From a bacterium (GTDB lineage Bacteria; Patescibacteriota; Minisyncoccia; Phycocordibacterales; Zambryskibacteraceae): 64,000 bases of DNA. The notes under the pieces were generated by a model. The model ran no database searches. It was not told the origin of the DNA and worked only from the letters and a program-made list of their open reading frames with translations. The DNA lies in assembly GCA_030649135.1 (NCBI GenBank), contig JAUSGI010000005.1, forward strand, positions 5,754 through 69,753. Direction: 5' to 3'. The first letter of the stretch is position 1. Every line of letters starts with the position of its first letter. Shown one piece after another: positions 38,552 through 54,306 of this stretch. The position numbers were made by a program, and so were the translations under genes.

Positions 38552-38807
38552 AAAAAATATTATGTGCTAGACTACAATCTGTTCTTACCCGCCTGCCGGC
38601 AGGCAGTTCCAGACCATAAATCTCTAAGCAACGTGCTCTTCGGGGTATTTGGACTTTTCTCTAAGGACGCTCTTGGTATCCTTGCCCCGCCTTGGCGGGG
38701 TGAAGGTTTCTGAGGCCATCCTTGAAAGATTCGTTTAGTCCCGCTTTGGCGGGATGTTGCTTGGAGATTTCTGTGCTGGATCTATGCCCTCTGTCTCTCT
38801 CTATTAT

Positions 38808-45710: not shown

Positions 45711-45755
45711 AATTTACCCCGCCATGGCGGGGCGTAGCCTAAAAACATATAACAA

Positions 45756-49553: not shown

Positions 49554-49628
49554 GCTCCCATCGTTCAATGGATAGGACATAACTTTGCGGAAGTTAAAAT
49601 GTAGGTTCGATTCCTACTGGGAGCACCA
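49554..49628 (+). tRNA. tRNA-Arg (anticodon GCG as read; CCA encoded)
   Basis: Acceptor GCTCCCA/TGGGAGC, D-arm GTTC/GGAC, anticodon stem TAACT/AGTTA with loop TTGCGGA, T-loop TTCGATT. Confidence 0.7.
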
Positions 49629-51177: not shown

Positions 51178-51933
51178 ATGACTGAATTGCTTTTATATTC
51201 GGCGCTTATCATGCTCGCCTCACTAGTTGGGGTCTTCTTTGTATGGCATAGGGCAGGGCAAGTCATTGAGCGCCATTCGAGTCTCTTGGTCAGTTTTTCC
51301 GCGGGAGTGTTTATCGTTATTGCTTGCCAATTGGGTGTGGAGGCGCTAGAGCATTCGGACACTCTTGGCTCCGGGTTCGTCTGGATAATCATCGGCGCGC
51401 TCGCAGTCTGGCTTCTGTTTAAATTTCTACCATCATCGCACCATCATCATGATGTGGCGCTCGAGACACACCCCCACTCGAGACTTGATGCTCGGCGGAT
51501 TATGACGAGCGACGCTCTGCATAATGTGGGAGACGGTATTCTCTTGGCCGCATCCTTCGCGGTGAGCTCGTCGTTTGGGGCACTGACCGCTTTAAGTATT
51601 TTTATACATGAATTGGTGCAGGAGGTGTCGGAGTTTTTTGTTATGAGGCAAGCGGGTTATTCGACCAAGCAGACTCTCGCCTTAAACTTCGCGATTTCCG
51701 GCACAATTTTTCTGGGTGCGCTTGGGGGTTTCTTTCTCTTGGAAAGTTTTGAAGCGCTTGAAGTGCCTCTCCTCGGTCTCGCTGCAGGTGCCTTCTTGGT
51801 AGTCGTGGTGCATGACCTTATCCCGCATTCAGTCAGAGCTTCAAGACATGAAAATCTTTATTTTAGACACCTCTCATGGTTTTTCGCGGGAGCTATTCTA
51901 ATGTTTGTCATAAATACATTCACCGCGCATTGA
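51178..51933 (+). CDS. ZIP-family metal (zinc) transporter
   Basis: His-rich loop HHHHD, HNVGDG and HELVQE motifs. Confidence 0.8.
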   Translation: MTELLLYSALIMLASLVGVFFVWHRAGQVIERHSSLLVSFSAGVFIVIACQLGVEALEHSDTLGSGFVWIIIGALAVWLLFKFLPSSHHHHDVALETHPHSRLDARRIMTSDALHNVGDGILLAASFAVSSSFGALTALSIFIHELVQEVSEFFVMRQAGYSTKQTLALNFAISGTIFLGALGGFFLLESFEALEVPLLGLAAGAFLVVVVHDLIPHSVRASRHENLYFRHLSWFFAGAILMFVINTFTAH

Positions 51934-51974
51934 TTTTTCTTTCCAAAAATGTTTTAATCTTTTGATTATTGGAG

Positions 51975-52070
51975 GGGTGGCTGACCATCGCCTACGGCGA
52001 GGCCCCGCCTCACCGCATTATGCGGGATCCCGCCAATGGCGGTGAAGCGGCGGTGGGAGGTTTAAGGCAT
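51975..52070 (+). other. GC-rich hairpin-rich element that begins with a 13-nt copy of the tRNA-Ser 5' end (GGAGGGGTGGC)
   Basis: Shares its first 11-13 nt with the tRNA-Ser at 52326 but lacks an anticodon arm or a complementary acceptor 3' end. Several short GC stems. Confidence 0.3.
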
Positions 52071-52072
52071 AT

Positions 52073-52318
52073 TTGTTTATGTTTGCAACCTACATTCTTA
52101 AAAGCAAAACCACCAACAGATATTACATTGGGTATACAAGTAACGTAGGAAAAAGAATCATTTATCACAATACCGGCAGGAATATTTCTACGAGAAGCGG
52201 TATACCTTGGAGCCTTGTGTATTCAGAATCATTTGAAACTCGAGCTGAAGCATGGAAAAGAGAACACCAGATAAAGTCATATAAAAGTGGAGAAGCTTTT
52301 AAAAAATTGATACAGTAA
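52073..52318 (+). CDS. GIY-YIG nuclease family protein (short)
   Basis: YILKSKTTNRYYIGYTSNVGKRIIYHN matches the GIY-YIG motif. Confidence 0.85.
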   Translation: MFMFATYILKSKTTNRYYIGYTSNVGKRIIYHNTGRNISTRSGIPWSLVYSESFETRAEAWKREHQIKSYKSGEAFKKLIQ

Positions 52319-52325
52319 GGTATCT

Positions 52326-52412
52326 GGAGGGGTGGCAGAGAGGTCTATCGCACCGCACTTGAAATGCGGCGTGGGGTAAATCCCACCGTGAGTTCGAATC
52401 TCACCCCCTCCG
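52326..52412 (+). tRNA. tRNA-Ser (anticodon TGA), type II with a long variable arm
   Basis: Acceptor GGAGGGG/CCCCTCC, anticodon stem CCGCA/TGCGG with loop CTTGAAA, variable arm GTGGG..CCCAC, T-loop TTCGAAT. Confidence 0.85.
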
Positions 52413-52549
52413 CCTTCGCCTCGCCGAAGCCCGCAAGGGCGTAGGCGGGCTTCGCTCGGCTTCGGCGTGACAAAGTCCGCCAGGTTGCATCGGAGCGACC
52501 CGAGTGCCTTAACGTGTCCTTTGGTCGAATCTGATATACTTTTTTTATT

Positions 52550-53101
52550 ATGAATATCAAATTAGGGACATTAGATTTCGCGATAGCAATGGAACGTCCA
52601 GAGTTACTTGCAAAAGCGGTGGTTGAGGTCCTTTCTGTCTTACCTAATGCTGACAAAGTCGGGGTTGCCGAAATTGACCCTAATCTCTCCGACACAGCTG
52701 GTTTTTGTGAACACTATAAGGTTGGAATGAACCATGCAGCCAACTGCGTAGTATTAGAAGCGAAGCGGGCAGATAAAAGCTGGTTTGCCGCTTGTGTAAT
52801 TTTTGGCAATACCAGAGCCGATGTAAATGGTCTGGTTCGGAGAACCTTGGATGCCCGCAAGGTGTCATTTGCGCCAATGGAGCAGGCGGTAACTCAGACC
52901 GGTATGGAATATGGAGCTATTACACCAGTTGGCTTGCCTAATGATTGGTCTATTTTGATTGATAAAGCGGTAGCTGATTCTGATTATGTAATTATTGGAA
53001 GTGGAATTAGAAAATCGAAACTCGCTGTTCCTGGAAGCTTTTTAGCATCTCTGCCTAATGTCCAAGTTTTAGAAGGACTTGGCCAAATGAAAACAATATG
53101 A
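52550..53101 (+). CDS. YbaK/ProX-type aminoacyl-tRNA deacylase domain protein
   Basis: ...GMEYGAITPVGLP...IGSGIRKSKLAVPGSFL matches the YbaK-domain core. Confidence 0.65.
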   Translation: MNIKLGTLDFAIAMERPELLAKAVVEVLSVLPNADKVGVAEIDPNLSDTAGFCEHYKVGMNHAANCVVLEAKRADKSWFAACVIFGNTRADVNGLVRRTLDARKVSFAPMEQAVTQTGMEYGAITPVGLPNDWSILIDKAVADSDYVIIGSGIRKSKLAVPGSFLASLPNVQVLEGLGQMKTI

Positions 53102-53530: not shown

Positions 53531-53611
53531 GGTGCCCAGACGTTCGATTGCAGTTAACCGATCTACAGGCGGGGTACGCAAAGTAAGCGTATTCTAGCCA
53601 AGGAGTTTGCC

Positions 53612-54292
53612 ATGAAGCTGAAGTTTCCCGACCTGACCAACGTGCTTGCGTGTGTGAACGGGAACTGCCCCGCCTCGAAGGAGGGTATCCTCCCAGAGGA
53701 AGCTCACGCTCGCCTCCGCCAGGACGGCGAGGATGTCGTGGCCGAGCCGATCTGCCTGGCCTGCGCCGGGGATGCGGCAAAGCGCGGTATCTCCGCGCCT
53801 CTCATCTCCTCGCTCATCAAGCGCGAGGAGGAGGCTCGGGCGATCATCGTCGCCAACGCGAAGGAGGTCGAGAGCCACGATGCCCGGCAGAGGGAGCTCG
53901 ATGCTCTCTTTGCCGGTGCCGTGTTCTTCTGCCGGGTTCCCGGCTGTTCGGCGGCTCCCGAGCCGGTGAACAAGATGTTTTCGGCGGTCTACATCGAGGG
54001 CGGGAAGGAGCAGGTCGTTCCGATCTGTCCGATCTGTGTCGATGGCGCCCACCAGACGGGCGTGAAGGTCACCGACCTTCACGCCACCATCGCGCGGCTC
54101 ACGCGCGAGGGTAGGGAGCACCTGCTCTACGAGCAGGCGGAGAGAAACAAGGTCCCGGCGAATAACTTTCTCGCCGCCTGCCAGAGGGGCGACGCCCGCA
54201 ATCAGCGGGCGATGCCAGCCGTGGTCGCTCACCACGGCAATGGCAACGGTAACGGCCTTGGCAATCGACCGAGGCTGGCGACCAACAGGTAG
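53612..54292 (+). CDS. GC-rich protein with two tandem 4-Cys zinc-ribbon-like modules and a Gly/Asn-rich C-terminus
   Basis: Repeat 1 has CVNGNC...PICLAC and repeat 2 has CRVPGC...PICPIC. Strong SD. Composition very different from the flanking genes. Confidence 0.55.
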   Translation: MKLKFPDLTNVLACVNGNCPASKEGILPEEAHARLRQDGEDVVAEPICLACAGDAAKRGISAPLISSLIKREEEARAIIVANAKEVESHDARQRELDALFAGAVFFCRVPGCSAAPEPVNKMFSAVYIEGGKEQVVPICPICVDGAHQTGVKVTDLHATIARLTREGREHLLYEQAERNKVPANNFLAACQRGDARNQRAMPAVVAHHGNGNGNGLGNRPRLATNR

Positions 54293-54306
54293 TCCGAGCG
54301 CAGCAA

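Follow-up and report, generated by a model that had tools for sequence, protein, structure and literature searches.

A small GIY-YIG nuclease cassette, probably of homing type, in a tRNA-Ser(UGA) gene of a Patescibacteriota genome

The window analysed here is a stretch of 64,000 nucleotides (nt) from a bacterium of the Zambryskibacteraceae (Patescibacteriota; GenBank assembly GCA_030649135.1, contig JAUSGI010000005.1, positions 5,754 to 69,753 of the forward strand), and our subject is a small GIY-YIG nuclease gene lying directly in front of a tRNA-Ser(UGA) gene. The open reading frame (ORF) at 52079-52318 (+ strand) encodes 79 amino acids (aa) and stops 7 nt 5' of tRNA-Ser(UGA) at 52326-52414 (+ strand). 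This tRNA was called by ARAGORN and matched Rfam RF00005 with 51.9 bits against a gathering score of 29, and its cloverleaf has a long variable arm, the UGA anticodon and two non-canonical D-stem pairs. On the other side, the interval between the ZIP transporter gene (51178-51933) and the ORF, given as 108 nt, contains a GC-rich block (51971-52069, 58% GC vs about 38% in the ORF). At the start of this block lies the first of exactly two occurrences in the window of the 11-mer GGAGGGGTGGC, at 51971-51981; the second, at 52326-52336, is the 5' end of tRNA-Ser(UGA). With its flanks the repeat reads TGGAGGGGTGGC[T/A]GA, 15 nt with one mismatch, the copies being 355 nt apart. The initial annotation had noticed this duplication as a 13-mer at 51979; the duplication itself stands, with the length corrected to 11 nt and the position moved by 8 nt to 51971. 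The statistics within the window are weak, as three matches with at most one mismatch were found vs 0.84 expected, and 5 of 100 shuffles did equally well. That the repeat is real follows instead from the comparison of loci described below, in which 47 of 64 carry the same kind of 5'-end repeat.

Close relatives were reached through homologues of the neighbouring ZIP protein, and one of them, L082, showed the locus without the nuclease gene. Its ZIP protein is 86% identical, it shares the RuvA-S20-tRNA-Arg-hyp156-ZIP synteny and a near-identical 37-nt spacer, and it carries an uninterrupted tRNA-Ser(UGA) 37 nt after ZIP, with neither hairpins nor ORF. Aligned to this empty site, the GC-rich block of the window is seen to hold a resident tRNA gene that has been broken open. 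Relic A (51971-51984, + strand, GGAGGGGTGGCTGA), recognised from the repeat and from the L082 alignment, contains the upstream repeat copy and represents nt 1-14 of the former resident tRNA-Ser(UGA); it starts right after the conserved ZIP-tRNA spacer, exactly where the intact tRNA of L082 starts, and has the L082-type T at position 12. A hairpin (HP) module follows at the D-loop position (51985-52056, + strand), and then relic B (52057-52069, + strand, GAGGTTTAAGGCA), nt 15-27 of the former tRNA, which is identical to the L082 tRNA at 13 of 13 positions; a spacer at 52070-52078 (+ strand) leads to the ORF. With the HP module removed, the relic equals the L082 tRNA at every diagnostic D-arm position. 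The 96-nt GC-rich, hairpin-rich element that the initial annotation placed upstream of the gene is indeed present, and is made up of nt 1-14 and nt 15-27 of the resident tRNA with the nested 72-nt HP module between them; its reservation that the match might go no further is answered by the 13 nt of tRNA sequence resuming after the module. The tRNA origin of the element beyond 15 nt could be resolved only through the L082 allele; relic B matches the window's own intact tRNA at 10 of 13 positions. A decayed full copy of the window's own tRNA was rejected as an explanation of the element, as the gapped alignment between them was non-significant past the first 15 nt (324 of 500 shuffles equal).

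The working tRNA of the window combines two alleles. From nt 28 to its end (62 nt) it is 100% identical to L082, and its D-arm, GGCAGAGAGGTCTATCGCA, is that of cassette-free alleles other than L082: three cassette-free tRNA-Ser(UGA) genes found in a metagenome scan (L093-L095) have exactly this second D-arm, with another variable arm. The working tRNA is thus a chimera of an L094-type D-arm with an L082-type variable arm and 3' part, its replacement 5' part (nt 1-27, 52326-52352, + strand) being unlike both the relic and L082, and the displaced resident 5' part survives as the relic. Such a chimera beside a resident-type relic is what is expected of an insertion into the gene with an imported replacement 5' part, and it shows co-conversion of flanking target sequence. 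The site is polymorphic, filled in the window and empty in L082 and L093-L095, so the gene is not syntenic in all relatives, as the initial annotation had cautioned it might be. A second polymorphic site was found at tRNA-Arg, filled in L088 and L089 and empty in the window and L082. The locus of the closest GIY-YIG homologue, L002, was rejected as an orthologous site, being rearranged with ZIP 2 kb away on the other strand.

These relatives also showed further arrangements. In L090 (2257-2860, minus strand) the tRNA-Ser(UGA) locus is turned round with respect to ZIP, and its nuclease gene belongs to another GIY-YIG subfamily; the 5' relic there, 36 nt long and of the D-arm type found in the window, precedes six hairpins, which are three repeats of CCCGCCACTAGACTGGCGGG / TCCGCCAATCCGGGTGGCGGA, and a 3' relic whose T-loop contains hairpins is present in addition. 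In L088 and L089, tRNA-Arg(GCG) is flanked by one or two GIY-YIG genes, and a tRNA-Arg 5' relic (nt 1-15) is split by another hairpin family (AGCCGAC.../CCCCGAC...). This tRNA-Arg(GCG), located between S20 and hyp156 (49554-49628 in the window), flips orientation among close relatives (L082, L084, L086, L088, L090-L092). At tRNA-Ser(UGA), L088 (5123-5467) and L089 (3137-3481), both relatives at 80% ZIP identity, carry a gene for a 114-aa PD-(D/E)XK nuclease (PF11645, PDDEXK_5) that stops 9 nt 5' of the tRNA on the same strand, the usual GIY-YIG position; no relic or HP module was evident upstream of it.

The ORF matched Pfam PF01541 with an E-value of 1.2e-13 (51.6 bits vs a cut-off of 22.6), which bears out the GIY-YIG assignment of the initial annotation. 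The length of 81 aa given there does not hold: the conserved start is the ATG at 52079, yielding a 79-aa product that is on record in public assemblies and aligns with homologues, and the 81-aa product that a TTG at 52073 would yield was not found on record. Homologues of 45-74% identity, mostly 79-90 aa long, occur in Patescibacteria and unclassified metagenome-assembled genomes. In 23 of them Y16, G18, R26, H30, N31, E50, R61, E62 and K66 are invariant and Y5 nearly so, which includes the catalytic residues of GIY-YIG enzymes, and E62 aligns with the conserved Glu of 1zg2 and 1ywl. A profile of these 23 homologues searched against PDB hit 1zg2 (BH0048; 2e-13), 1ywl (EF2693; 2.4e-10) and SLX1 (3e-5 to 5e-4), and was far weaker to I-TevI (0.03) and UvrC (0.75). 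The AlphaFold2 model (pLDDT 90.2) shows the expected three-stranded sheet with flanking helices, the strands lying at 2-9, 15-20 and 44-52 and the helices at 23-32 and 55-66; Foldseek placed 1zg2 and Slx1 at the top with TM of about 0.7 and also returned I-TevI and UvrC, in the same order as the profile search. The protein belongs to the UPF0213/SLX1-like GIY-YIG branch rather than to the UvrC/I-TevI branch. The catalytic domain takes up all 79 aa, and an extended DNA-binding region is not present.

Against homologues dN is 0.15-0.36, whereas dS is saturated or undefined for most pairs, which indicates purifying selection on the protein; the nuclease gene is apparently active. The window subfamily has a distinctive C-terminal KSYKSGEAFKKLI motif. 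The window protein found no match in NCBIfam, PADLOC or PHROGs and no relatives among viral contigs, and a phage or defence origin was rejected on these zero matches. The family as a whole is large, with 6,586 clusters at 50% identity at an E-value of 1e-10 or better. Many members have spurious N-terminal extensions or two fused domains, as would be expected of gene models that read through hairpins and of tandem arrays. Gene callers were often seen to push the ORF start upstream through the hairpins, adding 20-50 aa at the N-terminus.

One genome per species was scanned for homologue-encoding loci, which gave 80 loci; the scan was seeded with the C-terminal motif, so the sample is biased toward that subfamily. 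Two other GIY-YIG subfamilies, found independently, have the same layout (L088, L090). The hosts of the 80 loci were Patescibacteria, Ignavibacteria/Melioribacter, Bacteroidales/Bacteroidota, Omnitrophica and Endomicrobiales, with protein identity of 55-63% across phyla. A same-strand tRNA starts between -100 and +30 nt from the GIY-YIG stop in 61/80 loci, the ORF often reaching 15 or 22 nt into the tRNA. Linked tRNAs were mostly Ser (all four anticodon families) and Tyr, with Pro predominant in Bacteroidota, occasional Cys and Thr, and also Arg. As counted above, 47 of the 64 testable loci repeat the tRNA 5' end 60-130 nt 5' of the ATG, with a mean best match of 16.1 nt vs 6.2 nt in shuffles, so the chance occurrence that the initial annotation had allowed for does not account for the match. 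The upstream repeat, 10 to more than 30 nt long, starts with nt 1 or takes in a few leader nt before it, and in every case it fits the local tRNA. Since the relic fits whatever tRNA is present (four Ser isoacceptors, Tyr, Cys, Pro, Thr or Arg), each insertion must have made a new relic.

The layout also occurs in a mirror form, in which an intact tRNA and the ORF are followed by a 3' relic with an HP module in a loop (L008, L033, L059, L066 and Bacteroidota tRNA-Pro arrays). In a neighbour-joining ordering the proteins grouped by tRNA type and HP position, and the window fell in a cluster with the module at D-loop nt 14-16. Several cassette copies can occur per genome and per tRNA cluster, tandem arrays were found (L040, L072, L070), and truncated ORFs and ORF-less units occur.

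Some individual loci deserve description. In the Bacteroidota arrays of L040, L072 and L027, the GIY-YIG ORF and a tRNA-Pro copy recur behind a normal tRNA-Pro with a period of about 360 nt; in these copies the D-arm is replaced by a single CCCCGCC-nnnn-GGCGGGG hairpin, and ARAGORN still calls them tRNA-Pro. The ORF-less units of L064, L021 and L056, 5' of tRNA-Thr, consist of a tRNA-Thr 5' part with an HP module in the anticodon or D-loop, a spacer of about 20 nt and the intact tRNA-Thr, and in L021 and L056 the acceptor strand of the relic is unlike that of the adjacent intact tRNA-Thr. L080 has tandem HP-bearing 3' parts downstream of tRNA-Thr. In L079 (2740-2990) a tRNA-Tyr-derived sequence has insertions in the D-loop, anticodon loop and T-loop, and the fragment, whose end is close by, yielded no intact tRNA-Tyr. 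Contig ends inside or directly behind the tRNA 3' of the GIY-YIG gene are frequent (L009, L013, L015, L018, L043, L055, L062, L081 and L001), suggesting that the repeats break short-read assemblies.

The HP module has a consensus of about 36 nt, CCACCGCC-nnn-GGCGGGG-yy-CCGCC-nnn-GGCGG, and stands directly after the repeated tRNA piece. In the window it was delimited by nhmmer, blastn-short, covariation and DNA fold. Hairpin 1 of the outer module lies at 51985-52002 (CCATCGCC-TAC-GGCGAGG) and hairpin 2 has its arms at 52003-52009 and 52049-52056 (CCCCGCC...GGCGGTGG); nested in the loop of hairpin 2 is a second complete module at 52010-52045 (TCACCGCATTATGCGGGATCCCGCCAATGGCGGTGA), the whole block measuring 72 nt. 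Modules almost identical to this inner one occur in L022, L023 and L063, and the nesting of one module in another was also found in L006 and L022. Matches to the nhmmer profile in the whole window were restricted to 51986-52046; the profile was used instead of the pattern CCGCCNNNNGGCGG, which had zero matches in the window because the loops there are 3 nt long. Among the loci, blastn-short detected homologous HP pieces adjoining GIY-YIG genes in dozens of cases, the profile matched 71/80, and in 51/80 the module lay no more than 130 nt 5' of the ATG, mostly at -50 to -15. Different GIY-YIG subfamilies pair with different hairpin sequences in the same layout, as in L088 at tRNA-Arg and in L090 with its six hairpins of a second family.

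Covariation analysis of the two hairpins in 30 distinct copies showed 97.6% of cells paired and both-side changes in 7 of 14 pairs (38 cells), one position occurring as C:G, U:A and G:C; none of 500 shuffles and no slid register came near this result. The hairpins are therefore selected as structure, whether in single-stranded or cruciform DNA or in RNA. When relic and module of the window were folded together as DNA, the D-stem of the relic closed around the hairpins (z -2.1), which is the fold that the initial annotation had proposed to examine. Every mapped HP insertion interrupts tRNA-derived sequence at a loop position, never arbitrary sequence. Breakpoints in upstream relics cluster at nt 14-16 (D-loop) and nt 35-37 (anticodon loop), other copies sit in T-loops and at the variable/T junction, and between the module and the ORF some 8-13 nt of further tRNA sequence run to the end of the stem concerned.

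Solo GC-rich hairpins resembling the HP arms were also observed in the window, at 38685-38700 (CCCCGCCTTGGCGGGG), 38740-38753 (CCCGCTTTGGCGGG) and 45716-45731 (CCCCGCCATGGCGGGG). The first two occupy a 256-nt intergenic gap between two minus-strand genes, without an Rfam match. The third stands on the minus strand, 5 nt 5' of tRNA-Lys(UUU), and an identical hairpin takes the place of the T-arm in L075. In L041, L070, L075 and L077 the loops of HP hairpins were seen to contain AT-rich stretches of about 20-25 nt, indicating that the hairpin loops themselves receive further insertions.

Taken together, we consider it probable that 51985-52352 is a small homing-type selfish cassette that has entered the tRNA-Ser(UGA) gene and keeps the tRNA functional. 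The cassette, roughly 355 bp, comprises the HP module, the gene for the 79-aa SLX1-like GIY-YIG protein and the replacement tRNA nt 1-27, and the tRNA is still intact because the cassette carries this replacement 5' part. The initial annotation had proposed a mobile or homing unit with partial tRNA duplication, and that proposal is supported, except that the unit was inserted into the tRNA gene and not next to it. The marks of a selfish element are the many tRNA identities, the several copies per genome, the arrays, the truncated and ORF-less derivatives, the similarity across phyla and the second polymorphic site at tRNA-Arg. The unit does not resemble a group I or II intron, as Rfam searches of the whole window at the gathering score and of 51800-52700 at E-values up to 10 found only tRNA, and the downstream tRNA is uninterrupted; sub-threshold Rfam matches (sX4, 39.9 vs 70 bits; a plastid UTR) were dismissed because they merely overlap the tRNA. 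Nor does it resemble an integrase-type island, the GIY-YIG gene being the only ORF in the 355-bp unit and the duplicated segment being the 5' end.

In the mechanism that we propose, the nuclease would break cassette-free tRNA genes at a loop-coding position, nt 14-16 in the window clade and nt 35-37 in other clades. The break could then be repaired by copying a cassette-bearing allele, with the 5' part of the tRNA and the tRNA body serving as homology on the two sides. The result would be a disrupted relic with the HP module at the cut position, then the ORF, then an intact tRNA of chimeric make-up. Tandem arrays, ORF-less derivatives and deletions might arise when cutting is repeated or when the direct repeats undergo unequal exchange. 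The HP module may be an insertion that makes the relic uncleavable, or a structure recognised by the nuclease itself, and the ORF would be expressed from the tRNA promoter.

Several points weigh against a homing-type cassette. The protein is a bare 79-aa catalytic domain without the DNA-binding module of sequence-specific GIY-YIG homing enzymes, and the restored tRNA keeps its loop sequences and with them the presumed target, so self-cleavage must somehow be avoided. The window HP module has resident-type sequence on both sides, which single-cut homing fits only if the donor relic was of the same allele. In ORF-less units the duplication and the module persist, and perhaps arise, without a local ORF. 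There is one copy in the window (tblastn with 64 homologues detected no second GIY-YIG copy there) and no near-identical copy was found elsewhere, so recent mobility of the window copy is unsupported. The orthology of L082 is based on upstream synteny only, since its downstream flank differs. Lastly, SLX1-like proteins fused or adjacent to tRNA methyltransferases (PMC1564403) leave room for a role at the RNA level.

Some of these observations could also be explained if the HP module itself were the mobile entity, a tiny palindromic element entering hairpin loops of single-stranded or cruciform DNA, with the SLX1-like nuclease as its structure-specific, transposase-like mobiliser. Its targets would be tRNA D-, anticodon- and T-loops and the loops of other modules, and the tRNA duplications would be by-products of repair instead of homology arms. 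We hold this to be possible, well short of probable. It accords with the placement of all mapped insertions at tRNA loop positions, with the modules nested in HP loops (52010-52045 in the window, L006 and L022), with the ORF-less HP-plus-relic units and the isolated single hairpins of this type at other places in the window, with a hairpin fold under selection, with the resident-type sequence bounding the window module on both sides, and with the nearest characterised relatives, the SLX1 enzymes, being structure-specific nucleases. Yet intermediates, target-site duplications of fixed length and terminal signatures were not found, there is no precedent for DNA integration by a GIY-YIG enzyme, the fixed distance from HP to ATG in most loci equally fits one co-inherited cassette, and the loop positions may equally mark the cut sites of a sequence-specific enzyme. 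Put in its boldest form, to which we give the same tentative weight, the double hairpin could be a new kind of prokaryotic mobile DNA, a palindrome of about 35 nt copied into the loops of stem-loops extruded by structured-RNA genes and moved by an SLX1-like nuclease. It would target tRNA loops, other HP modules and possibly rRNA stem-loops, choosing by shape and not by sequence, and would need no transposase, integrase, reverse transcriptase or ribozyme.

A different suggestion, which we find unlikely, is that the GIY-YIG protein is a host tRNA factor for RNA processing, repair, quality control or intron-like removal of the HP module, kept with the tRNA as an operon, the relic being a tandem duplication in decay. 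The tight same-strand linkage with probable co-transcription and the purifying selection on the protein would suit such a role, as would the SLX1-like domains that occur in fusion with TrmH, or as neighbours or fusion partners of COG4123 methyltransferases (PMC1564403), and the whole tRNA copies with an HP module in a loop (L066; Bacteroidota tRNA-Pro; L079, with no intact copy seen on the fragment). A host factor would hardly be present or absent at the same tRNA among close relatives, linked to many unrelated tRNA identities, found in multiple, arrayed and decayed copies, or accompanied by protein and HP similarity across phyla. Moreover, the family is missing from most tRNA genes, including the 7 other tRNAs of the window, none of which carries a GIY-YIG cassette, and the HP-bearing copy in the window has nothing past nt 27, so no tRNA could come from it. 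The truncated relic and the pattern of presence and absence make a role in host tRNA processing much less likely, although the HP-bearing full-length copies elsewhere leave room for it. That the 11-mer is a chance match, or an att-type duplication of an integrase-mediated island with the GIY-YIG gene as an unrelated neighbour, is very improbable. The marginal excess of the 11-mer in the window alone and the loss of significant alignment to the window's own tRNA past the first 15 nt would allow it; the recurrence of the repeat among the loci and the collinearity of the relic with the orthologous intact tRNA speak against it, as do the lack of an integrase, the 355-bp size of the unit and the duplication of the tRNA 5' rather than 3' end. 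We favour a free-standing kind of GIY-YIG selfish element, with a real chance of something more unusual.

A putative promoter of the tRNA-Ser unit was picked out by eye at 51930-51958 (+ strand; TTGATT and TTTAAT at a distance of 17 nt, with a TG upstream). This candidate and the ZIP stop codon overlap, and the surrounding spacer is conserved with the empty site of L082. A consensus scan of 51850-52600 for promoters and terminators gave no + strand call, including at this candidate. If functional, the candidate would now drive relic, HP module, ORF and tRNA, and the nuclease gene, placed between tRNA promoter and tRNA, is presumably co-transcribed.

Downstream of the tRNA, the GC-rich palindrome cluster reported in the initial annotation is present at 52413-52480 (+ strand; inverted repeats I2 and I6, RNA fold z -2.1), and is only doubtfully a part of the unit. 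The palindromes were rejected as a unit part, the motif TTCG..CTCGC lying 3' of only 2 of 145 tRNAs in related loci, and they are not a recurrent part of such units. The downstream palindrome (CTTCGCCTCGCCGAAGCCCGC...GCGGGCTTCGCTCGGCTTCGGCG) resembles the sequence 3' of a Bacteroidales tRNA-Pro copy (L027 478-512, the sole blastn match), and the synteny between window and L082 ends exactly at the tRNA 3' end, where the cluster lies. About 1.2 kb 3' of tRNA-Ser, beyond YbaK-like and tRNA-binding-domain genes, an island of 62-72% GC was observed at 53600-54300 in a genome of about 45% GC; its ORF (53612-54292, 226 aa) had no Pfam, PADLOC or PHROGs match.

The standalone bacterial SLX1-like (UPF0213-type) proteins form a very large orphan family, and one big subfamily is now tied to a recurrent genomic event, which points to a testable function. 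With its roughly 330 bp and the piece of tRNA that it borrows, the cassette would rank among the smallest protein-coding mobile elements, and it would represent a route into an essential RNA gene that needs no ribozyme, by carrying a spare part. Annotation and assembly are affected as well, through contigs broken at tRNA genes, GIY-YIG gene models over-extended through hairpins, and false or missed tRNA calls (ARAGORN named HP-bearing copies tRNA-Pro or tRNA-Ser). In Patescibacteria, Bacteroidota and Ignavibacteria, such cassettes may be a driving force behind the shuffling of alleles and the inversions at tRNA loci, and the nuclease could be of use as an enzyme should it recognise DNA structure.

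No prior description of a tRNA-linked small GIY-YIG cassette was found in the full-text literature searched, subscription-only papers lying outside this coverage. The nearest functional analogue is SegB of phage T4, an enzyme of about 220 aa that includes a DNA-binding part. This homing endonuclease of the GIY-YIG type is encoded in a tRNA gene cluster (PMC2330249), and it was recently shown to drive segmental amplification of tRNA loci (PMC13096335). In both systems the GIY-YIG gene lies between or next to tRNA genes and not in an intron, and tandem amplification of tRNA segments is linked to the nuclease; the SegB type of spread, by cleavage of the nuclease-less allele and co-conversion of flanking tRNA sequence, is proposed to operate alike here. 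Unlike the larger phage enzyme, the window protein consists of nothing but a 79-aa catalytic domain, belongs to the SLX1/UPF0213 branch, is encoded on bacterial chromosomes and has no viral-contig relatives, and the cassette has a conserved hairpin module and a split relic of its target tRNA, neither of which is described for Seg enzymes. By profile and fold the closest proteins are the standalone UPF0213/SLX1-like ones (1zg2 BH0048, 1ywl EF2693), which share the single domain and the Y..Y.G..R...H...E set. UPF0213-type proteins have no assigned function, and a 2006 survey by Dunin-Horkawicz et al. reports no link to tRNA genes (PMC1564403); the window subfamily differs from them in its C-terminal motif, its tRNA-gene linkage and the lack of an NCBIfam model.

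In rRNA genes of the candidate phyla radiation (CPR), GIY-YIG-encoding insertions unlike group I/II introns have been described at the top or base of stem-loops; their authors judged them to be outside homing, and tRNA is never mentioned in that paper (0 occurrences) (PMC11270868). They are like the cassette in coming from the same host group and in placing GIY-YIG genes within structured-RNA genes, and unlike it in sitting in rRNA genes, with no hairpin module or compensating duplication described. By analogy, the CPR rRNA insertions may be the same phenomenon in another structured-RNA gene.

Integrative elements in tRNA genes use tyrosine or serine integrases, duplicate the 3' part of the tRNA and are kilobases long. 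Like them, the cassette targets a tRNA gene, preserves its function by a carried copy of the displaced part and is bracketed by a direct tRNA repeat; unlike them, it is about 355 bp in size, lacks an integrase and duplicates the 5' part of the tRNA or, in the mirror form, the 3' part. A further comparison is with REP/REPIN sequences and their RAYT enzymes, the latter being HUH/Y1 transposases. There too, short GC-rich palindromic hairpins go with a dedicated single-domain nuclease gene and occur as solo and clustered copies (PMC3337134). REPs differ from the cassette in being extragenic and not specific to tRNA loops and in causing no target gene duplication, and RAYT belongs to another nuclease family.

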